Shown here one piece after another: positions 2,314-14,968 of a DNA stretch of 15,937 bases (within the stretch, counting starts at the first letter, position 1; each line of letters opens with the position of its first letter). Position numbers and translations under genes: made by a program. This DNA is from a virus (Duplodnaviria > Heunggongvirae > Uroviricota > Caudoviricetes): IMG/VR virus record IMGVR_UViG_2737471841_000003; one strand, written 5' to 3'. Below the pieces are notes generated by a model. The model saw only the letters and a program-made list of their open reading frames with translations, was not told the DNA's origin and did not search any database.

Positions 2314-2463
2314 TCAGATGAACTGAGAAAGCTCGCGTACAAGCTGGATTTCCTGCCTTTCTTTCTGTTTTTCCTCTAACCACTTCCTACCCTCAGGTGT
2401 GCTGAGAAACTTGCGTACATGAATACGCTTGTTGTTTCTCTTTATGGCTTTCTGGTTTTTCAT
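2314..2463 (-). CDS. 49-aa highly basic small protein (MKNQKAIKRNNKRIHVRKFLSTPEGRKWLEEKQKERQEIQLVRELSQFI)
   Basis: Internal ATG at 2463-2461 of the track ORF 2314..2568 has a strong SD (AGGAGGT, complement of 2467-2473) at 3-nt spacing. The longer N-terminal extension in the track would overlap the promoter at 2540-2568. About 14 of 49 residues are K/R. Confidence 0.45.
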   Translation of the reverse strand: MKNQKAIKRNNKRIHVRKFLSTPEGRKWLEEKQKERQEIQLVRELSQFI

Positions 2464-2900: not shown

Positions 2901-3728
2901 TTATGGGTATACTACTCCTGCACTTTCCATTGCACTATCTACATAGGCTTTAGTTCTGGGAGACATGGGGGCATTACCCTTAGCTGCGTCACCCACATTC
3001 GACTCTTTAGACTTATCGTTCACAATGCCCTTATTCTTGGGTGGAGATTTCTTCGGATCAGAGAAAATTGTGGCTTCCACCATTTTAGTTTTGAAGGTCC
3101 TGAACTCCTGGAGAGTGATATCAAAGAGAATGGCCTCACCTTCGGTGTTCTTTTTGCTGGCACGCATCGAGGTAATGATAAAATTCTCATAGACATCTTC
3201 TTCTGTGACCAACGAGATTAATTGGCGTCTATCTATACATTCATTAACCGCCGCCAATGCCGCCGCCATCCTTCCACTTTCGCGGGGGGCTTCTGGATCT
3301 GTGTTACGGTCAATGTAGTTTGCCTTCCGGTACATCTGGGGAGAGGTAGTCACCCTGGCGGTGAAAGATATTTTGGTATCTTTGATCACGGCATGATCTG
3401 AAATAGTCACACCATCTTCTACAGCAAAATCTGTTTTCTCTATATCTCTGGTGACTTCATAATCGGTAATGCAGTCGAAGATAAGGCAAATGTTATCGGT
3501 GTAGTTAAATTCCTGTAAGCGATAATCCTGACCATGACCATTCAGGCCGGAAATTATCATGGTGAATTGTGCATCAGCCTGAGCTTTTTCTGCATTTAAG
3601 AATTTACCTTCATGCTCAACGCCCAATTCATCCTGGCTATAAATCCTTTCCCCAGTCTTCCAGTCCCTGCGACCTTCTGAACCATAGGAAACATCTTCGT
3701 TAATAACTACTTTATTGCTATTCATCAT
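2901..3728 (-). CDS. 275-aa acidic hypothetical protein; no domain recognised (could be a minor virion protein or an accessory gene)
   Basis: ATGATG start at 3728-3723 preceded by AAGGGGA. It begins 15 nt after the stop of the 53-aa HTH ORF, so the two are probably co-transcribed. TAA stop at 2903-2901. I see no Walker, HNH or PD-(D/E)xK motif. Confidence 0.7.
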   Translation of the reverse strand: MMNSNKVVINEDVSYGSEGRRDWKTGERIYSQDELGVEHEGKFLNAEKAQADAQFTMIISGLNGHGQDYRLQEFNYTDNICLIFDCITDYEVTRDIEKTDFAVEDGVTISDHAVIKDTKISFTARVTTSPQMYRKANYIDRNTDPEAPRESGRMAAALAAVNECIDRRQLISLVTEEDVYENFIITSMRASKKNTEGEAILFDITLQEFRTFKTKMVEATIFSDPKKSPPKNKGIVNDKSKESNVGDAAKGNAPMSPRTKAYVDSAMESAGVVYP

Positions 3729-3743
3729 TTTCCCCTTGCCTTG

Positions 3744-3905
3744 TCAGATAATGCCATAGTGTTTCAATGTTTCAATCAACCCATTACGTTTCAGGAAAGT
3801 TCGCACAGCCTCACGCGTAACTCCGGCTTTTCTGGCTATTTCCGAAAGGTTGATAAAATCAGTGTCTGTGTTTTCAATAACAACACGTTTGTTAATCAAT
3901 TTCAT
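3744..3905 (-). CDS. 53-aa helix-turn-helix DNA-binding protein (MKLINKRVVIENTDTDFINLSEIARKAGVTREAVRTFLKRNGLIETLKHYGII); absent from the ORF track (below its length cutoff)
   Basis: Translated codon by codon from the reverse strand: ATG at 3905-3903, SD AAGGAG (complement of 3914-3919) at 8-nt spacing, TGA at 3746-3744. The segment LSEIARKAGVTREAVRTFL is a typical HTH (excisionase/MerR-like or Nu1-like). Confidence 0.5.
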   Translation of the reverse strand: MKLINKRVVIENTDTDFINLSEIARKAGVTREAVRTFLKRNGLIETLKHYGII

Positions 3906-3995: not shown

Positions 3996-5024
3996 TTATG
4001 CCGCTTCGGTTAATTTCAGTTTAAAAATGAAATCTGGCCTACTATTGAGGTACGCGGTATGGGATTCACAGAAGATTTTACGCTGGGTGTTAGTCTGTTC
4101 TAACCAGTAAATTTCCCGTGCAGGTGCACCGCTCATTGCATAGCGTAAATTACGGGTTGCAGGTCCCACAATTTCACTCATGCAAGGCAGGAAAGTATTC
4201 TTGCGAACTGCCGGAACAGCGTAAGCATGACCTTCTTTCATGAATGAATCGTCACAGCTGATAATAGTGATAGCAATGCCATCTACCTGGAATACAGAAT
4301 AACCCGGCAGATGTTCACCATCAAATACCATGCTGGATTTAACAGTACCATTACCGAACATAATAGCGCGGCGAATGTCTTTATCATCGTAACGCAGGCG
4401 ATCATAAGTTGAGCTATCTACGAAGAGATAAACCCCACCAAATGAGTGAACTAAACCGCCCATTTGTTTTTTGACCAGTTTTACAATTCGTTCAAGCTCA
4501 CGGATGAGATCGCCACCCAGGTTTAACTCATCTTCGGACTGTTTAAACTTGCCACCCAGTTCCTCGACAATATCGATATCCCCACCTTTGAAATGAATCA
4601 CGTTATCAAAGAGAGCGCGCTGCATAGCTTTTTCTCTTGCAATTTCAAGGCGTTGTTTCATGCTCAACAGGTGTTCACCCGTCACATCGTCCAAGGTTTT
4701 CTCACGATTGGTGCCTGGTTTGCGGTGACCCTGGAAAGCGCTGGCGCTGATCTGAGATTCCAGTGCATAAGCAGGAACACGCAGCATTAAAGTTTGTGCT
4801 GTACCTGTTACGATGCTGCCATAATCACCCAGATCATAATCGCTTACAACTGGGGCAGCTGATTGGGTTGCTGCAATAACGTTATCGAACACGAAGGAGG
4901 TTGTACTGGTGTAAATTTTTTCATTAAACAAGCCCAGAGAAGTGATCAGCTGGTTTTCTAATGTTGGTTCTAGCATCACACATTCTGTGACATCTTTATA
5001 ATCGAATAATTGAAAGTCTGCCAT
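3996..5024 (-). CDS. Major capsid protein, lambda gpE family (342 aa)
   Basis: Size matches lambda E (341 aa). Recalled local similarity to lambda gpE: KNTFLP vs KNFLP, SGAPAREIYW vs GDPAREFTM, and a similar central hydrophobic block. ATG at 5024. It sits directly downstream of a small decoration-like gene, as in lambda D-E. Confidence 0.7.
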   Translation of the reverse strand: MADFQLFDYKDVTECVMLEPTLENQLITSLGLFNEKIYTSTTSFVFDNVIAATQSAAPVVSDYDLGDYGSIVTGTAQTLMLRVPAYALESQISASAFQGHRKPGTNREKTLDDVTGEHLLSMKQRLEIAREKAMQRALFDNVIHFKGGDIDIVEELGGKFKQSEDELNLGGDLIRELERIVKLVKKQMGGLVHSFGGVYLFVDSSTYDRLRYDDKDIRRAIMFGNGTVKSSMVFDGEHLPGYSVFQVDGIAITIISCDDSFMKEGHAYAVPAVRKNTFLPCMSEIVGPATRNLRYAMSGAPAREIYWLEQTNTQRKIFCESHTAYLNSRPDFIFKLKLTEAA

Positions 5025-5036
5025 TCCATCCCCCTA

Positions 5037-5360
5037 TTAAAGTGCTAATTTGACATGTTCGTTTAACAGGTGGGGAATAGCTTCCGGAGGATTAATTCCG
5101 AAAGAATTTAATACCACACCGATCCCGTGAACAATAACTAATTTGTCGCCTTTTTTAGCTGGTTCCAATACCACAAATAAAGCAGGCATCTCTTCTTCGT
5201 CAGCGTCGAATTTTGCCCCTTCTGCGGTAATAACATCGCCAGGGAATAAATCCTCAGTTAATGCCGTTTTCAGTTCCAGAGCTTTTTGTTCAAACTCGGG
5301 GTCCATGGAATAGGCGACCACATCTGCACGTGTTTTACGCGGCTTATCAGAAAATAACAT
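5037..5360 (-). CDS. Putative head decoration protein (107 aa), lambda gpD-like by position and size
   Basis: ATG at 5360 with GAGGT SD. Its stop is 12 nt upstream of the capsid gene start. 107 aa vs 110 aa for lambda D. Sequence similarity to gpD was not confidently recognised; the call is positional. Confidence 0.45.
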   Translation of the reverse strand: MLFSDKPRKTRADVVAYSMDPEFEQKALELKTALTEDLFPGDVITAEGAKFDADEEEMPALFVVLEPAKKGDKLVIVHGIGVVLNSFGINPPEAIPHLLNEHVKLAL

Positions 5361-5429
5361 CGTGTTACCTCATCTCTATCGCATTTATCAGATTTAATGT
5401 ATTAGAATCTCACCTCTGATACATTAATA

Positions 5430-5460
5430 AAGGCCACCCCTTCAGGTTGGGTAGCCTTGA
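5430..5460 (-). terminator. Terminator-like hairpin upstream of the head genes (- strand)
   Basis: On the - strand: GGCTACCC, loop AACCTGAA, GGGTGGCC (8-bp stem with one G.U), then TTTATTAATG. It lies about 70 nt upstream of the start at 5360. Confidence 0.3.
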
Positions 5461-5913
5461 TAATGGACCAGGTGCATAATCCAGAGCACGAAGATTATTC
5501 TCTGGTCATTCGTCTGTCGAGGTGATTTAAATGTGAAGTGAATCAGGCATTACTGCCTCAATCCATATAATAAAACCTCCCCCTAGCCCAGAGAGAGGCC
5601 TTATTATTTACTAGGATATATGAATGACTGATTTCAGTCTGGCAGATTCGCTAATAGCTCACCGCCTGGCACTTATTATCGCCTTCATTAGATCACCACA
5701 AATAATGTCGGCTATGGGAGAATGTAACCCGCTCCCAGTTGTTCACAGTACAACCAGACTTTTTACTGGAGAAAGTAATATCCACTCGTATAAATATTAC
5801 CTTCTTTAAAGGCCCTCGCTACGGTGGAAAGAAGAGGTAGCACAGAACAACCAGCAAAGACCTTTAAAGAAGTACGCCCAGCATCAAGGGGAAAATGATG
5901 AAAAAGCTCTGAG

Positions 5914-5942
5914 CTTCCGGGCGTTGACAAGTACAGGAGAAC
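5914..5942 (+). promoter_or_regulatory. Near-consensus sigma70 promoter (TTGACA, 17-bp spacer, TATTAT; TG immediately upstream of the -10)
   Basis: TTGACA at 5914-5919, TATTAT at 5937-5942, TG at 5935-5936. Confidence 0.45.
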
Positions 5943-6018
5943 ACTGTATTATCCAATAATCGGTGAGATGTAGGTGAGATAACTCGAAAGGTGTAACCAT
6001 GAAAGTATCTACATCATA

Positions 6019-6038
6019 GTATTATGATAACATAATAC
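6019..6038. promoter_or_regulatory. Inverted repeat (GTATTATG ATAA CATAATAC), candidate operator or RNA hairpin in the leader
   Basis: 8-bp arms separated by 4 bp, downstream of the 5914 promoter and followed 16 nt later by a T7 run (6055-6061). Confidence 0.3.
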
Positions 6039-6095
6039 TTGCCGTTTGTCAATCCTTTTTTCAAAGAAATTTAAAAAATTTTTCTCTCCGCCTCT

Positions 6096-6142
6096 TTTCT
6101 CGATCAAACAATTGAAAAAACTATTGACTGAGGCGTTAGAAT
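6096..6142 (+). promoter_or_regulatory. Promoter for the homing-endonuclease-like gene: 13-bp upstream box TTTCTCGATCAAA, then -35 TTGAAA and -10 TAGAAT (19-bp spacer)
   Basis: The box at 6096-6108 is identical to 14751-14763, which sits in the same position relative to the consensus promoter at 14768. -35 at 6112-6117, -10 at 6137-6142. The spacer is longer than optimal. Confidence 0.35.
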
Positions 6143-6182
6143 GTGATACGGTTCACCACAAATGGTAAGTGGAGGGTGCGAT

Positions 6183-7013
6183 ATGAAAGAGAGAAAACAG
6201 GCTTTAGCTAAAACAACAGAGCAGTTCATCGCTGAGGCAAGGAAAGTGCATGGTGATAAGTACGATTATTCGAAAGTTGAATACGTGAATATGCGCACTG
6301 AGGTTTGTATCATTTGCCCAATACATGGGGAGTTCACACAAAGACCAGAGAACCATCTTCGCGGTAACAGAGGAAAGGGGTGTGGTTGCCCTATTTGTAA
6401 ACCTTGGAGAAAACGCCTGACACGAGAAGAGTTCGAAAGGAGGGTAAAAGAGGTACACGGTGATAACCTGGATGTTTCACAGTTCGATTATAAAAACGTT
6501 CACACAGAGGGTATTGTTAAGTGCAACAGGTGCGGCATGACGTTCTCGATACAGGCACAAGCGATTATCCTTAGAAATTCTGATGGTAGTCTTCTAGGCG
6601 GTTGCCCTGTGTGTGACCATCTACACAGAGACGCGGAATATGTTTATTTGGCGCTGGATGATCCACACTTTCCGACGAGATTTAAGATCGGGGTAACAAG
6701 CAACCCACAGGACAGATTGATAACTTTGAAGTGTAGAACACCTTTCAGGGTGTTTATGAAATGTTGTTTCAAAGTAGGAAAAGTGAAGGCGCGGAGGCTG
6801 GAGTACTTCCTGCACAACTTCTACAACTTCTGCAATTGTGGTTATGAATCAAGAAAGGACTTTCAGGGTGCAACAGAGTGGTTTTATTACCTGCAAAGTA
6901 AAGTAGGGGTGAAGAGGGTGCTCAAGATGTTAGTAAAACTGGTAAACGCCAGGAGCTACAACCGCCACTACATAAAGCATAAAAAGCCAACGTTTAAACG
7001 CACTTTGTTTTAA
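6183..7013 (+). CDS. Homing-endonuclease-like protein: two N-terminal Zn-ribbon repeats plus a C-terminal T5orf172 (GIY-YIG-like) domain
   Basis: Start moved to ATG 6183 (GGAGGG SD at 6171-6176); the track start at 6162 lacks an SD. Two tandem repeats of HGDKYDYSKVEY...C.ICP.HGEF.Q.P..HL.G.GC..C, then YVYLALDDPHFPTRFKIGVTSNPQDRL...EYFLH...ATEWFYY, which matches the T5orf172 pattern as I remember it. Confidence 0.65.
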   Translation: MKERKQALAKTTEQFIAEARKVHGDKYDYSKVEYVNMRTEVCIICPIHGEFTQRPENHLRGNRGKGCGCPICKPWRKRLTREEFERRVKEVHGDNLDVSQFDYKNVHTEGIVKCNRCGMTFSIQAQAIILRNSDGSLLGGCPVCDHLHRDAEYVYLALDDPHFPTRFKIGVTSNPQDRLITLKCRTPFRVFMKCCFKVGKVKARRLEYFLHNFYNFCNCGYESRKDFQGATEWFYYLQSKVGVKRVLKMLVKLVNARSYNRHYIKHKKPTFKRTLF

Positions 7014-11030: not shown

Positions 11031-12008
11031 ATGACTACAGAAGTGATGATCCAGATTTTCGAATCTGATTTAAATAATGATGGTAACTTAGTCCCGGTTG
11101 TTAACGCCCGTGAGTTTTACGAAGCGCTTGGGATGCGAAAAGATTATGGAAATTGGATCAGGTGGCATCTTCGGAAATTTGAAAAAAATCGGGACTTTAT
11201 TACTTTTATCGATAAGTCGGGAGAACATCCGCGTCATAACTATTTTATCACTTTGGACACTGCAAAGCACATATGCAGGGTGAGCCAACGCCAGGAAGGT
11301 GAGCAGTTGCTACAGTATTTAATTAAAGTTGAAAAAAGATACCGTTTAGTACTGGACCCACAACCACAGATTCCTGTTTACACACAGTCACAGATTCCTG
11401 TTTACACACAGTCACAGATTCCTGTTTACACACAGACGGAACCTGAACCGTTGCCAGGAACACCGGAACATTTTGCCCGTGCATTTACGGAGGCTTACCA
11501 ACAGATATACGGGGCAACAGATCAGCAGCCAGTCATTGAGCACAATACGGAACCTGTGGTTCCTTGTTGGGGAGCTGGGTCTAATCAGAGCCTCGAGGTC
11601 CAGGATGTGCAGGAAGTACGACCGCCAGCACCTGTGCTGGGGTATTACAATCCTTGCCCGGACAACAAAATCAACATGAAAGGCTTAAAAGAATACCTGA
11701 GCAATGAACGCCTGATCAAGTACCTCATTAAAAAATTCAACATTGAAAATGAGATTTATGATTATGGTTACATAAATGTGAAAGGGAAAGCTGAGTCGGA
11801 GATTGTGTACGATAAACGTAAAACGCTGGCGATCTTACATGCCGCTTACGCTTTGAGTACTAGAGTAAACGCCACACAGAGAGAGTTTATGGGGATAGTA
11901 TTCACGATGTACAGGGTGTTAAGAGACACACATTATGATAAGGACATGTACGATACAGCTTACACTCTTCTTGAAGAGGATATAAACAAATTGTATAAAA
12001 TTGATTGA
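11031..12008 (+). CDS. Antirepressor-like protein with N-terminal AntA-type domain (325 aa)
   Basis: ATG at 11031 with a G-rich SD. The N-terminus (VVNAREFYEALGMRKDYGNWIRWHLRKFEKNRDFITF...YFITLDTAKHI) matches the AntA/AntB antirepressor N-terminal pattern as I remember it. Contains a triplicated QIPVYTQS repeat. Confidence 0.65.
   Translation: MTTEVMIQIFESDLNNDGNLVPVVNAREFYEALGMRKDYGNWIRWHLRKFEKNRDFITFIDKSGEHPRHNYFITLDTAKHICRVSQRQEGEQLLQYLIKVEKRYRLVLDPQPQIPVYTQSQIPVYTQSQIPVYTQTEPEPLPGTPEHFARAFTEAYQQIYGATDQQPVIEHNTEPVVPCWGAGSNQSLEVQDVQEVRPPAPVLGYYNPCPDNKINMKGLKEYLSNERLIKYLIKKFNIENEIYDYGYINVKGKAESEIVYDKRKTLAILHAAYALSTRVNATQREFMGIVFTMYRVLRDTHYDKDMYDTAYTLLEEDINKLYKID
11367..11438 (+). repeat. 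Three tandem 24-bp direct repeats (CAGATTCCTGTTTACACACAGTCA) inside the antirepressor-like gene
   Basis: Units at 11367-11390, 11391-11414 and 11415-11438; the third differs in its last bases. In frame, encoding QIPVYTQS x3. Confidence 0.9.
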
Positions 12009-12371: not shown

Positions 12372-12408
12372 GGGACAAAATGTCCTACCTACCCGGGACA
12401 AAATGTCC
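12372..12408. promoter_or_regulatory. Two copies of a 14-bp palindromic operator-like site, GGGACAAAATGTCC, 23 bp centre to centre
   Basis: Exact copies at 12372-12385 and 12395-12408. Each is a dyad (GGACA-N3-TGTCC). Confidence 0.5.
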
Positions 12409-12409
12409 A

Positions 12410-12419
12410 CCCCCCCCCC
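12410..12419. repeat. Homopolymeric C10 tract
   Basis: Ten consecutive C at 12410-12419, directly after the second operator copy. Confidence 0.9.
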
Positions 12420-12449: not shown

Positions 12450-12486
12450 TTGTACAAATTGTAGTCACTGATTGTACAGATTGTAG
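12450..12486. repeat. Two direct repeats TTGTACA(A/G)ATTGTAG spaced 22 bp
   Basis: 12450-12464 and 12472-12486. Each has a TGTACA palindromic core. Confidence 0.6.
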
Positions 12487-12490
12487 CACT

Positions 12491-12573
12491 ATACCGGTTT
12501 TCCGATAGAGCTATACCGGATTTCCGGTAGAGGTATACCGCTTTTCCGGTATAGGTATACCGGATTTCCGGTA
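12491..12573. repeat. Iteron array: four 17-bp dyad-symmetric sites (ATACCGG-N-TTTCCGGTA) at exactly 22-bp spacing; putative replication origin or partition/regulator binding array
   Basis: Sites at 12491-12507, 12513-12529, 12535-12551 and 12557-12573. Arms TACCGGA and TCCGGTA are reverse complements. Followed by an AT-rich stretch (12574-12622), the same layout as the lambda origin (four dyad iterons plus an AT-rich region). Confidence 0.6.
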
Positions 12574-12622
12574 ACTATTAGATCAATCTATTACATCAAG
12601 AAAAAAGATCACTTATTATATT

Positions 12623-12645
12623 AAGGGCCTTGCCCTTTTTGTTGT
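12623..12645 (+). terminator. Terminator-like hairpin (AAGGGC, loop CTT, GCCCTT, then TTTGTTG)
   Basis: 6-bp GC-rich stem with a 3-nt loop, then a T-run, at the end of the AT-rich region. It would terminate read-through from the 12087 gene across the iterons. Confidence 0.35.
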
Positions 12646-13845
12646 GGGATTGATTGGTGGGATTGATCTTACTGATAGTATAATACTCCACCAATCAACC
12701 CTAAGTTGTGGGAGAGTACGGAGCAGACTGCGACTACAGAGCAGGCTGAGAAGTACTCAATGGGTGTAAGGGATTAAGGGACCCACACACATTTCCACAC
12801 ACAGAGTAAAGCCAGAGGCTTTATGAAGTGTAAGAGTAATGCCTAAAGAGTCGAAGCACACTTTAGGCTATATTGTGTGGGAGGTATCTGTACATAGTAC
12901 AGAGTACTCCCCATTATGTGGGGGCAATCCTGCCCGTAAGGGCAGCTCATGTGATTCGCAGCCGTAAGCTGAACTGCGACGAAGAAGGCTGCAAAGGTTC
13001 TCGGCCCGGTTACAATTACGCAACAATTTTATAATCTATCGTTAACCTATACCACTATCACAATTTCTATAGTTGAGTCCTACTATCCCCTACACCATAA
13101 AATCAATTTTAAGCCACACTCAGCCTACGGCTTCACGGTAAAACGTGTTTTAACCCACATAATGGCCCCTGTAGTGAGCTAAATGGTATACACCGCTATA
13201 ATTGGGTTACTTATGAGATAACCTCGTTAGAATCGATTCTAGAGCGTTTTAGAGCTTGAAATCCATCCTGCAAACTGCAAGATGATGATTCTATCGGGGA
13301 AGAATTTTTTTCCTTCCCGTAAGTCGTACCGTAGAGCAGATTTGCTTTACGAGCTTTCTCACACCTCAGGCCTCTGGCCTTCATGGAGTATCGGAGATAC
13401 GACTCACCGCATATACTCTGTTTTCAGTGCTACCCTGATCGCATCCGACCCTTTTCAGAGGCACTTTTAACCGCATTCTGGCACGCTACAACAGCAAGAA
13501 ATAGGCTGATTCTACTGATTTTACCTTACAATACAGGTACATAGCAGAAGGGCAGGAATATACTGTGAGAATGGTTGCTAGACCGGGCCTTCTTCTCTCT
13601 GTGTGTGCATTCTGAAACCGTTATGTAGTCGAGTATATAACGACTGGTCAGACCAGTGCAGGGCTGAAAATGATGATCGGTCACCACAATTATGGGCAAA
13701 TTACTGTACATTCATACAGTAGTTATACATAAAGAATATGCATCGATTGCTCTTTAGGCACAGATGTTATAATGTAACAATTAATTTAGTTTACCTCGGT
13801 AATCACTGTGTGGACATGTCACGCAACTAAACTAAATCCGAAGAG

Positions 13846-13854
13846 TTATCCACA
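13846..13854 (+). promoter_or_regulatory. Consensus DnaA box TTATCCACA
   Basis: Exact 9-mer match to the R-type DnaA box, single copy. Nearby are an 8-bp palindrome GACATGTC (13812-13819) and a 10-bp inverted repeat, ATTTAGTTTA (13783-13792) with TAAACTAAAT (13827-13836). Confidence 0.3.
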
Positions 13855-14687
13855 GATTGGGGGTAAATCATCAACATAGTCTGTAGCCTCTGACAGAGAG
13901 CAAAAAGAAAGGCCTTTTATGTGATCAATATCACGTTTCTGGGGTAGTTCTGGAGGCTTAGGTGCGGGGAAGTAGTGCGTACTGACACCAGAGGCCGCAT
14001 AAAACAAGGGGATTTAACATAATGGATCTTGTATACACCACACCTCACCACGTTGAAATCTGATCTTACTTTGAGGCTATCTGCCAACAGAATCCGCGTA
14101 CATGCACCATAACCTGTATGTGGGATGCAATAATAAAGGCCCTGGCGGCCCACAGGCCGCATGAATACTGGGCTTGTCATAGATATGGGCCTGTATCGCT
14201 ATGTAGATGCGGGATGACCTGTAAGGGTGTGGCAGGTGGCAGGGGCTGGAGGGCACGGTACAGCACAGCTAATGGGTGAGGCCCCAGATATTTGAGAATC
14301 ACTCTCACCTGAGAATAATTATCAGTAACTCCTGCCTAGTACCACCCCTGTAGGTAAGGTTGATCATTGCCCACATTGCTGGTATACTTTATCTGTGGGA
14401 AAGTAACGCCGTTACTTCCGCGAACGCTGTGCGTGATGTGTGGGAGAATGTGCCTGCGTAATAAAAAAATTGAAAATTACTCATCTGTCAACATTTCAAT
14501 GACGTATGTCAATCATTTATGCTATGTGTTTACTTTATAATCAATCACTTACGAATTTAATGAAATAAATGCATTTAAATAGGGTGAAACTCAAATCTAA
14601 CCCCTGAAACTGTGTTGATAAAGGGGCGTGAAGCCCGGCGTAGGTAACTCGTTACCCGCCAGTGTTATTGATAATTCTCATTTACGT

Positions 14688-14716
14688 TTGACAATGCAAT
14701 CCCAATGGTGTATAAT
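14688..14716 (+). promoter_or_regulatory. Perfect consensus sigma70 promoter (TTGACA, 17-bp spacer, TATAAT)
   Basis: TTGACA at 14688-14693 and TATAAT at 14711-14716, in an AT-rich upstream context. Confidence 0.6.
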
Positions 14717-14750
14717 AGACTATAAGGGGTAAGATAGAATCTTTACTCAA

Positions 14751-14796
14751 TTTCTCGATCAAAGGTATTGACAAATGAGAGTAAAGGTGTTATACT
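14751..14796 (+). promoter_or_regulatory. Second tandem near-consensus promoter (13-bp box TTTCTCGATCAAA, then TTGACA, 17-bp spacer, TATACT)
   Basis: Box at 14751-14763, -35 at 14768-14773, -10 at 14791-14796. It lies 80 bp downstream of the 14688 promoter. Confidence 0.6.
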
Positions 14797-14885
14797 TATC
14801 TATAACAGCAAAACTCTACTTTAGAGCCGCTCCATGAGGAGCAAAGCTCCGAAGTGTGATCATAGTCGGTAAATCCCTTACTTAC

Positions 14886-14918
14886 CGGGGGCACTTCTCC
14901 AGCCCCCTCTCTTTTTAA
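14886..14918 (+). terminator. Intrinsic terminator in the leader (GGGGGC, 9-nt loop, GCCCCC, then TCTCTTTTTAA)
   Basis: Stem 14887-14892 pairs with 14902-14907, followed by a T-run at 14908-14916. It is about 110 nt downstream of the predicted start site and about 50 nt upstream of the 14969 start. Confidence 0.5.
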
Positions 14919-14968
14919 CGGTATGGTAAGAAAACATTCTTTATAAGTGATAAAAGAGGTAGTTAATC

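Follow-up and report, generated by a model that had tools for sequence, protein, structure and literature searches.

The 15,937-nt stretch of DNA analyzed here (IMG/VR virus record IMGVR_UViG_2737471841_000003, assigned to the Caudoviricetes; hereafter the window, meaning the whole stretch) raises a simple question: why do a major capsid gene and the small gene preceding it stand alone behind some 800 bp without supported genes? A first-pass annotation of the sequence had read the two genes in a lambda-like frame, as D and E homologs deprived of the terminase, portal, and protease genes expected upstream, and had proposed either a late leader controlled by antitermination or the acquisition of the capsid genes as a module. 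The answer that we reach by sequence analysis, and that we hold with moderate confidence, is that the window represents a satellite of rV5-like myoviruses, in which the gap would be the attenuated leader of the capsid operon and would at the same time act on the helper phage's capsid genes as an antisense RNA.

The window is a complete circular, plasmid-like element of Escherichia coli of about 15.9 kb. An exact-protein look-up retrieved a 15,926-bp contig from another source (L002), which is a circular permutation of the window with 100% identity and in which the two ends of the window are contiguous. L002 itself is broken at about 11,400, inside a tandem 24-nt repeat (window 11340–11410) that encodes QSQIPVYT three times within the gene of an AntA-domain protein, and the two sequences differ in length by 11 nt. 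Relatives of 13.8–15.9 kb (L007, L014, L015, and L016) have differing start points on the same gene circle, and a second clade (clade B, L004 and L005, the window belonging to clade A) shows the same layout, with a terminal overlap of 55 nt in L004. The elements of this family, all within this size range, come from E. coli and Shigella assemblies and from metagenomes. The capsid protein of the window is recorded at NCBI as WP_047671621.1 (also KHI93872.1), "major capsid protein [Escherichia coli]," and the members of the capsid-protein cluster derive from E. coli and Shigella sonnei assemblies, where they lie on separate contigs of 14–15 kb. In 5,426 complete E. coli genomes the element had no match at all, the PLSDB plasmids matched it over a 100-bp antA stretch only, and a scan of 185,579 GTDB species-representative genomes yielded no copy. 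Scans of IMG/VR with the capsid protein of either clade, or with a 25-mer of the terminator T1 described below, returned nothing. Among 50,697 phage records, no nucleotide or tblastn match was obtained for the window, the capsid gene, the leader, or the region 2240–2910, and protein matches were limited to the tail-tube initiator and the tape measure.

The first-pass annotation had rightly remarked that portal, protease, and terminase genes are missing directly upstream of the capsid genes. They are missing because the window is the whole element, which also disposes of the expectation that the remaining head genes might lie elsewhere in the genome. Searches of its open reading frames (ORFs) against Pfam and PHROG found nothing like a portal, protease, scaffold, terminase, sheath, tube, or baseplate protein, and only four genes in each element have homologs among virion genes: a 107-aa gene, the capsid gene, and the genes of the tape measure and of the tail-tube initiator. 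As a small replicon missing essential virion and packaging genes, the 15.9-kb circle displays one general feature of phage satellites. The capsid genes would then stand alone because the satellite carries a shell and two tail genes but not the portal, protease, scaffold, and terminase genes.

The capsid gene was correctly recognized at first pass: its product belongs to PF03864 (31.1 bits, above the gathering cut-off of 22.9) and to the major head proteins of PHROG 29, and precomputed PF03864 matches exist on its relatives as well. The family is rare, with 30 relatives among 1.84 billion representative proteins and a next clade at ~30% identity. The lambda-like frame, however, proved misleading, the closest relatives of the virion genes being found in rV5-like myoviruses (Vequintavirinae). 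Compared with its Vequintavirus counterpart, named "tail tube initiator," the Dit-like protein shows 49% identity; the tape measure protein reaches 26% with its own counterpart there, the N-termini being similar, and the capsid protein is collinear with Vequintavirus-type capsid proteins at 27–35% local identity. The order of these genes in Vequintavirus is terminase, portal, protease, scaffold, decoration, and capsid, followed at some distance by tape measure and tube initiator; the element therefore has homologs of just two adjacent pairs. The 107-aa gene occupies the position of the Vequintavirus decoration gene, directly upstream of the capsid gene, and has a suitable size (about 100–130 aa), so that on position only its product is possibly a decoration protein. 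The label of D-like head decoration protein could not be upheld: the protein did not match lambda gpD (PF02924), the phiTE/Vequintavirus-type family (PF26074), or PHROG 2680, in the case of PHROGs even at E-values up to 1, and the same Pfam and PHROG libraries do recognize the Vequintavirus decoration protein. Direct comparison with Vequintavirus decoration proteins revealed a weak similarity (E-value 0.002–0.004; hhalign probability 3–8%), a profile search of the PDB returned noise only, and the AlphaFold model was too poor for a fold search (predicted local distance difference test score, pLDDT, 45.6). Within clade A, the 107-aa and capsid proteins are 86–98% identical among the elements compared. 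By contrast, among elements that are otherwise ~90% identical (the window, L011, L014, L001, and L016), tape measure types diverge down to 25% identity and tube-initiator types to 42–48%, the start region of the tube-initiator gene (CAAGGGGAAAAUGAUG) being kept even there. This difference suggests module swapping. The first-pass idea of an acquired module was thus right in spirit, since the element holds isolated homologs of Vequintavirinae genes and its tail genes are exchanged between relatives, but no head genes are waiting elsewhere to complete the set.

A physical link with such phages is provided by a 60,220-bp metagenomic contig (L011; ENA ERZ27242512 k141_228590), in which positions 1–17204 contain a whole element between two stretches of phage DNA. 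Two "empty" phage contigs, L018 (133,680 bp) and L019 (119,343 bp), have the sequences of both flanks next to each other, with about 85 bp between them, as seen by comparing L018 6438–6939 and L019 7609–8073; the counterpart of the site in the window is listed in table 1. The element is inserted into a noncoding, origin-like phage region of ~1 kb; from there, the terminase–portal–protease–scaffold–decoration–capsid genes of the phage lie some 4.5 kb downstream, and the junctions fall at CCCACACA(G) motifs, the phage side reading ...CTTCCCACACAG. Most relatives encode a 188-aa serine recombinase, which could be the agent of this insertion; the window lacks it and has in its place a T5orf172/DUF723 gene. 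The head genes of the L018/L019-type phages show ~79% nucleotide identity to the nearest cultured Vequintavirus. Taken as a whole, gene content, homology, and insertion fit, without proving, a phage satellite with Vequintavirinae-like (rV5-like) helpers. The four 22-bp iterons of the element (TATACCGGNTTTCCGGTA) and repeats of the phage (GGTTTCCATACCGATAA; L019 8560–8720), which are located where the element inserts, look compositionally alike, and the satellite origin may mimic that of its helper.

We then consider the gap itself. It spans 801 bp (5361–6161) and separates the ATG of the 107-aa gene from the plus-strand gene starting at 6162, and the first-pass statement that it contains no supported ORF stands, none being conserved in relatives. 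Several of its elements had nevertheless been overlooked, as had the circularity of the window: a sigma-70 promoter for the leader and capsid operon, a second promoter facing it, and a terminator, T1, within the leader (coordinates in table 1). All eight clade A leaders of full length have the TTGACA of the leader promoter, at a distance of 667–720 nt before the 107-aa gene. The facing promoter serves the rightward (early) operon, and the two transcripts would therefore overlap by about 58 nt. The terminator-like hairpin that had been noticed before the 107-aa gene is real (T2). T1 and T2 are both predicted to be intrinsic terminators, made of a GC-rich hairpin and a U-tract, and the hairpins are maintained in relatives: changes in T1 are limited to G-U to G-C or the reverse, and the T2 stem is swapped in L007, L011, and L016 for an unrelated one (GGGGAUU/AGUCCCC), with hairpin and U-tract kept. 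T1 is the stronger of the two, and the transcript terminated there should measure about 450 nt. The spacer between them occurs in two variants among relatives, for which we saw no signal of covariation with the small helix-turn-helix or basic proteins. Downstream, a long-range helix is predicted to mask the Shine–Dalgarno sequence of the 107-aa gene and encloses both T2 and a 13-bp hairpin.

Several observations indicate that the leader is a structured RNA. Its minus strand has a minimum free energy of −218.5 kcal/mol (z −7.3, vs. −3.9 for the plus strand), and RNAalifold analysis of 10 sequences gave 138 consensus pairs, with 98.6% of cells paired. Compensatory changes were found at 13 pairs, vs. 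7.3±1.6 in column shuffles (none of 500 reached the observed value) and 1–3 with slid partners. Many of the pairs are G-U and are valid on the minus strand only; because several of them lie in the 20-bp hairpin, the latter is fully paired only as minus-strand RNA. Moreover, identity between elements is higher in the leader than at third codon positions of the adjacent genes (e.g., 0.935 vs. 0.798). The leader had no family in Rfam, where only subthreshold matches to generic hairpins were obtained. A ColE1-type primer RNA was set aside as its identity, the iterons and the Rep-like gene being located elsewhere.

A short-word search of the leader against helper-type loci and the remainder of the element hit the starts of the helper decoration gene and of the tube-initiator gene of the element. 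We then scored the predicted T1-terminated RNA against every gene start of L019 (28 genes), and 200 shuffled leaders served as a control. The best match was the decoration gene (z −7.6, 0/200 shuffles), with a perfect 18-nt complementarity to its start region in L018 and L019 (UUCAAGGGGAAAAUGAUGAU; −30.2 kcal/mol), and the second was the major capsid gene (−24.2 kcal/mol, z −4.7, 0/200 shuffles). The start of the scaffold gene, weakly complementary to the loop of the 20-bp hairpin, came far lower (z −2.2, 4/200 shuffles). In these candidate helpers, the start regions read TTCAAGGGGAAAATGATGATC... for the decoration gene (motif TCAAGGGGAAAATGATG; cf. contigs of IMG/VR 3300045988) and TTACTGGAGAAAATAATGATCACTCG... 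for the capsid gene. Four further IMG/VR contigs of 118–141 kb contain a 24-nt pattern that spans the first of these two regions. Because the leader sequence complementary to the decoration gene forms a hairpin, its anti-Shine–Dalgarno bases are placed in the loop; changes of this hairpin in relatives are only from A to G and from U to C, which keep both the hairpin and, through G-U pairs, the pairing to the target. The duplex with the capsid-gene start is predicted to extend from leader nucleotide 196 to 255/256, that is, over roughly 45 bp with −39.5 to −40.4 kcal/mol, in five helper-type contigs. Among the 20 genes of the element itself, the tube initiator is the sole outlier (z −4.0), through a perfect 16-nt match between leader 5900..5885 and its start at 3738..3723; the starts of the 107-aa and capsid genes are outside the eight best-scoring of these 20 start regions (z above −0.84). 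Conservation beyond that of synonymous sites, covarying structure, and antisense to the capsid-gene start regions of the helper were all beyond the view of the first-pass annotation.

Clade B offers a separate comparison. Its leader (L004 8055–8525) has no similarity to that of clade A by blastn, and an nhmmer profile of clade A leaders had no match in clade B leaders or in helper-type phage loci. It starts with a perfect consensus promoter, folds with a z-score of −5.5, and is predicted to mask its own Shine–Dalgarno sequence. Among 60 start regions, it matched best that of the capsid gene in MaxTheCat, a cultured Vequintavirus (z −4.9, 0/100 shuffles), where CCUCCAAAGUAAA would pair with UUUACUUUGGAG(A), with flanking pairs over the AUG. 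This match to a Vequintavirus capsid start, itself a prediction, would constitute independent support for the antisense reading.

These data lead us to propose the following scenario. The leader promoter would drive a structured noncoding RNA, most transcripts of which would stop at T1, yielding the ~450-nt RNA, or at T2. Expression of the capsid gene must require read-through of these terminators, and in read-through transcripts the long-range helix would mask the Shine–Dalgarno sequence of the 107-aa gene. With two terminators and a masked Shine–Dalgarno sequence, the capsid genes of the satellite would therefore be held down at two levels in the plasmid state. The signal relieving this control would presumably be infection by the helper, whose late mRNAs may titrate the RNA, or which may act through an antiterminator of helper or satellite origin. 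The terminated leader would probably act in trans as an antisense RNA, with the exposed hairpin and the linker as pairing sites, on the start regions of the decoration and major capsid genes of the helper and of the tube-initiator gene of the satellite. The outcome would be a block of helper shell-protein synthesis, the satellite supplying its own, nontargeted shell proteins for particles packaged with the machinery of the helper.

The same anatomy can also be read as a transcription attenuator acting purely in cis and overcome by an antitermination factor of the helper or of the element, the complementarity to the helper being without function. We judge this unlikely, but it is the alternative that fares best. 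It accounts for the two terminators and the Shine–Dalgarno-masking helix, which covariation supports, for the predicted masking in clade B, and for the layout of the tape measure operon, which has the same design as the capsid operon, namely, a conserved sigma-70 promoter followed by a conserved terminator before the first gene. This repeated design makes an attenuation or antitermination layout plausible. Such a layer of control is compatible with, and indeed already part of, the explanation that we favor. Left aside by a purely cis-acting device are the ~430 nt upstream of T1 that are conserved above synonymous-site level, the fact that it is precisely the decoration and capsid genes that rank highest for antisense matches among 28 helper genes, and the match of the unrelated clade B leader to a Vequintavirus capsid-gene start. 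We also considered Q/N-type antitermination in a late leader of the lambda kind; the Rfam search revealed no recognizable nut, put, qut, or boxA-like element in the leader, and no antiterminator gene was recognized. As far as it goes, the antitermination proposal of the first-pass annotation is therefore sound as to the long noncoding leader, the genuine terminators, and the layout, with neither an antiterminator nor its site identified: it is plausible but incomplete, and the leader RNA and its complementarity to the helper are the interesting part.

A second alternative, for which the prospects are poorer still, is an immunity RNA of the P1 c4/P4 CI type that would act on its own operon only, by masking the tube-initiator start, the match to the helper merely reflecting inheritance of this sequence from a helper-like phage. 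The perfect 16-nt match is in agreement with this idea, as is the conservation of the motif in all clade A elements in spite of the divergence of the tube-initiator proteins (42–48% identity), and antisense RNAs embedded in leaders have precedents in P1, P7, N15, P4, and PLE (PMC7567579). It accounts neither for the separate and longer match to the helper capsid start, which has no counterpart at the capsid gene of the element, nor for the fact that the clade B leader matches the capsid start of a Vequintavirus, and no similarity to the Rfam families searched was seen. It is very improbable that the element, instead of being a satellite, is an assembly artifact or derives from a larger phage or phage-plasmid, as a fragment or a defective remnant, with head genes elsewhere. 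Most contigs do come from short-read assemblies, and a 1,248-bp contig of low coverage (L008; ENA ERZ2272784, coverage 1.6) carries a 107-aa gene with about 90% nucleotide identity to that of the window, directly preceded, in place of the leader, by the end of an ORF (positions 1–102, ...DEAVAGIDGDLDR*); this end did not match the C-terminus of the helper scaffold, and L008 is possibly a variant element or a recombinant. Against a fragment speak the independent contigs from different samples that form the same circle with different break points, the absence of portal and terminase from all of them, the presence of iterons and of a Rep-like gene, and the genome and plasmid searches reported above, in which nothing but the 100-bp antA stretch was matched. 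Finally, the idea that small proteins, not an RNA, are encoded in the gap and were overlooked is very improbable as well, since no ORF of at least 20 aa is common to seven related leaders, a 38-aa ORF (6000..5884) that recurs in several relatives is absent in L016, frame-shifted in L001, and devoid of a Shine–Dalgarno sequence, indels among the leaders are not multiples of three, and substitutions leave base pairing intact, also where it involves G-U pairs that only minus-strand RNA allows.

Several points weigh against the reading of the element as an rV5-like satellite with an antisense leader. No cultured phage matching the candidate helper is known, the nearest Vequintavirus reaching only the ~79% mentioned above in its head genes; integration is documented by one metagenomic contig, whose left flank is only 422 nt long; and the identity of the helper derives from homology, from this contig, and from the complementarity itself. 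Transcription start, termination efficiency, and RNA abundance are predictions. As to the complementarities, the shuffling procedure was a simple home-made one that nearly preserves dinucleotides, duplex energies ignore the accessibility of both target and leader, and translation start regions are compositionally similar. The matches to the helper decoration gene and to the tube initiator of the element are not two independent observations because they involve the same 16–17-mer, and the tube-initiator gene would be an additional RNA target for which the scenario has no explanation. Furthermore, in inverted orientation the leader shares about 27 of 32 nt with the start of the helper capsid gene, and past inverted recombination with helper DNA could have left the antisense stretches as relics. 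Lastly, the first-pass suggestion to look elsewhere for an antiterminator led to no antiterminator family among the ORFs of the element, and no other mechanism of relief was identified.

Table 1. Features of the window, with positions counted on the whole stretch
Feature	Position	Strand	Basis or remark
Tape measure protein gene, 712 aa	118..2256	+	Pfam TMP_3, PHROG 5255
Tail-tube-initiator (Dit-like) gene, start region CAAGGGGAAAAUGAUG	2901..3738	-	Pfam Dit_like, E 2.9e-25
Gene of 53-aa helix-turn-helix protein, inside capsid/tail operon	3744..3905	-	Weak helix-turn-helix matches; 83–100% identity across relatives
Major capsid protein gene, 342 aa, HK97-type, Phage_cap_E family	3996..5024	-	Pfam PF03864, E 1.7e-7; PHROG 29, major head protein
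107-aa gene, 12 nt upstream of capsid gene	5037..5360	-	ORF
Noncoding structured leader RNA of capsid operon, about 657 nt	5361..6017	-	5′ end placed from the promoter
Long-range helix of ACCUGGUC with Shine–Dalgarno region GAUGAGGU	5473..5466 with 5374..5367	-	RNAalifold helices 15 and 17, one compensatory pair each
Hairpin, 13 bp	5427..5394	-	RNAalifold consensus
Predicted terminator T2, GGCUACCC-AACCUGAAG loop-GGGUGGCC, then UUUAUU	5456..5426	-	Ends 66 nt before ATG
Predicted terminator T1, extended 19-pair hairpin, then UUUUAUUAU	5607..5567	-	Helix 12; simple scan gave about 5596..5576
Leader segment antisense to helper major-capsid-gene start (linker UUUCUCCAG)	5787..5763	-	21 bp, two mismatches, over Shine–Dalgarno and AUG
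Hairpin, 20 bp	5872..5800	-	Helix 5: 21 pairs, 100% paired, one compensatory pair
Hairpin CAUCA-UUUUCCCCU-UGAUG, antisense to translation start region UCAAGGGGAAAAUGAUG	5902..5883	-	Short-word search and duplex energies
Facing sigma-70 promoter of rightward (early) operon, TTGACA-17-TATTAT	5924..5952	+	11/12 consensus positions; both hexamers conserved in relatives
Sigma-70 promoter of leader and capsid operon, TTGACA-17-TATCAT with extended TG	6052..6024	-	11/12 consensus positions
17-nt inverted repeat, candidate operator pair	6048–6064 and 6112–6128	.	Conserved in L001; one arm over −35 of leader promoter
T5orf172/DUF723 nuclease-like gene	6162..7013	+	Pfam and PHROG endonuclease matches
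Operator-like repeats	12372–12417		
Iterons, four of 22 bp	12483–12573		
Stretch matching phage-integration recombination site	about 12803–12907		
Promoter of tape measure operon	14768–14796	+	Conserved in relatives
Leader terminator of tape measure operon	about 14888–14917	+	Conserved in relatives

The other features of the element complete this picture. The minus strand encodes a 49-aa basic protein, the Dit-like protein, the 53-aa helix-turn-helix protein, the capsid protein, and the 107-aa protein, whereas the plus strand carries a run of small genes and the tape measure operon, which encodes a 79-aa protein, a Rep/O-like protein, and the tape measure. The AntA-domain protein and a helix-turn-helix protein are encoded as well. 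No tRNA was found in the window. The T5orf172/DUF723 gene is an insertion relative to relatives, being absent from L001, and genes of this kind occupy varying places: next to the leader promoter in the window, and at the AntA position in L014 (2710–3642) and L015 (13628–14560), the copies of the latter two showing a weak precomputed match to the CapR family of PLE. The 49-aa protein (MKNQKAIKRNNKRIHVRKF..., 2314–2463, minus strand) is very basic, 92–100% identical across clade A and conserved in clade B, and matched no family; rich in Arg and Lys like small RNA-binding antiterminators, it is, speculatively, an antiterminator candidate. The ORF-poor region next to it (2464–2900), up to the tube-initiator gene, shows 83% identity to L005 over 349 nt. 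It is the sole long noncoding region conserved at the nucleotide level between clades A and B, whose proteins are only about 30–55% identical, had no match in the phage records, and is a candidate packaging site or another RNA.

The region 12600–14960 is also unusual for a 15.9-kb element, with about 2.3 kb devoid of ORFs in any genetic code (alternative codes were considered and rejected) and many short hairpins, and it is variable between relatives; together with the capsid leader, it brings the noncoding share of the element to roughly 3 kb. Hairpin "cassettes" with flanks of the CCCACA(G)/GUGUGA type vary in copy number between relatives, with 0, 1, or 3 in the leader of the tape measure operon. 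They are located at 14822–14860 and 13381–13410 in the window, about 150–195 in L009, and 12250–12400 in L011, one of them forming a 42-nt insertion at CUCCCACAG in the capsid leader of L009, and similar cassettes are present at the phage insertion site. These cassettes may be miniature mobile repeats or recombination sites.

Compared with known satellites, the element resembles the cf-PICIs, the Streptomyces satellites MiniFlayer and MulchRoom, and the mycobacterial EPIPs, which have similar sizes (~14–17 kb), encode their own major capsid protein, and obtain the rest of the virion from a helper; like the element, EPIPs carry a tape measure gene (PMC12822802). The cf-PICIs and EPIPs, however, carry portal, protease, scaffold, head–tail connector, small terminase, and integrase types that are absent from the element, which has the capsid gene alone of the set defining cf-PICIs (capsid with portal, protease, connectors, small terminase, and integrase). 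The element further differs in having a tape measure and a tube initiator instead, in being a plasmid-type replicon with iterons that was not found integrated in bacterial genomes (complete E. coli genomes and GTDB representatives), and in having its virion-gene relatives among large myoviruses of virulent type. Nor is it P4-like: among the ORFs scanned, no integrase, alpha primase-helicase, or Sid, Psu, or Delta protein was matched in Pfam or PHROG. As in lambda, a small gene directly precedes a capsid gene of ~340 aa of the Phage_cap_E family, but the 107-aa protein has no match to the gpD family, the membership of the capsid protein in PF03864 is only a distant one, and Nu1-A-W-B-C genes are lacking.

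Lowering the expression of helper capsid genes is common among satellites. The Vibrio cholerae PLE, likewise a satellite of a large lytic myovirus (ICP1), is described as doing so through CapR, a domesticated T5orf172 nuclease (PMC7567579; PMC8096241), and T5orf172/DUF723 genes also occur in the element family. The most abundant PLE transcript is a noncoding RNA with antisense homology to gene leaders, and RNAs derived from leaders and complementary to gene leaders are known in PLE, P4, P1, P7, and N15 (PMC7567579). There is no sequence relationship between PLE and the element, and PLE is integrated in the chromosome, uses the helper coat protein, reshaped by TcaP, and represses capsid genes transcriptionally by a protein, whereas the element is plasmid-like and would replace the shell genes and repress translation by an antisense RNA. 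The c4 RNAs of P1 and P7, the CI RNAs of P4 and phiR73, and the CA RNA of N15 offer another comparison: as with the element, an RNA from a 5′ leader is complementary to a downstream ribosome-binding region of the same transcript (in the element, that of the tube initiator), transcription ends prematurely in the leader (as predicted for the element), and all are found in phage-plasmids or satellites. The element RNA had no Rfam match above noise to these families, is predicted to measure ~450 nt vs. ~70–80 nt for c4/CI RNAs, and, unlike them, has its best matches in another genome, in the decoration and capsid genes of the helper. Lastly, provirophages offer the case of a virus parasite that exists free as a small genome or inserted in the genome of its giant-virus helper; they belong to a different domain and use a different mechanism, and the insertion of the element was seen in a single metagenomic contig.

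Satellites, so far known for just a few types of helper, shape the dynamics between phages and bacteria. The Vequintavirinae are widely isolated phages considered for E. coli phage therapy. In the literature searched, no paper connected Vequintavirus or rV5 with satellites; plasmid satellites are regarded as rare (PMC12282955), and a satellite with a capsid gene and a tape measure was reported only recently, with the mycobacterial EPIPs (PMC12822802). More tentatively than for the element itself, we suggest that the family may constitute a new class of plasmid-borne satellites of rV5-like coliphages, which would replace the helper shell rather than remodel it, block translation of the helper decoration and capsid genes with a ~450-nt antisense RNA, supply their own versions by read-through of the same leader, and insert site-specifically into the helper genome. 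If this is true, the Vequintavirinae would have a satellite family of their own, which E. coli and Shigella isolates would carry as a small plasmid, and the family's conserved structured RNA of ~450–650 nt, absent from Rfam, would represent an RNA-based, sequence-programmable shut-off of helper capsid synthesis, beside the protein repressor CapR of PLE. The defined 18-nt target and compensatory mutations provide directly testable predictions, and helper specificity would become readable from the sequence match. The odd gene set would also find its rationale, as the satellite would encode exactly those shell genes whose helper versions its RNA matches.

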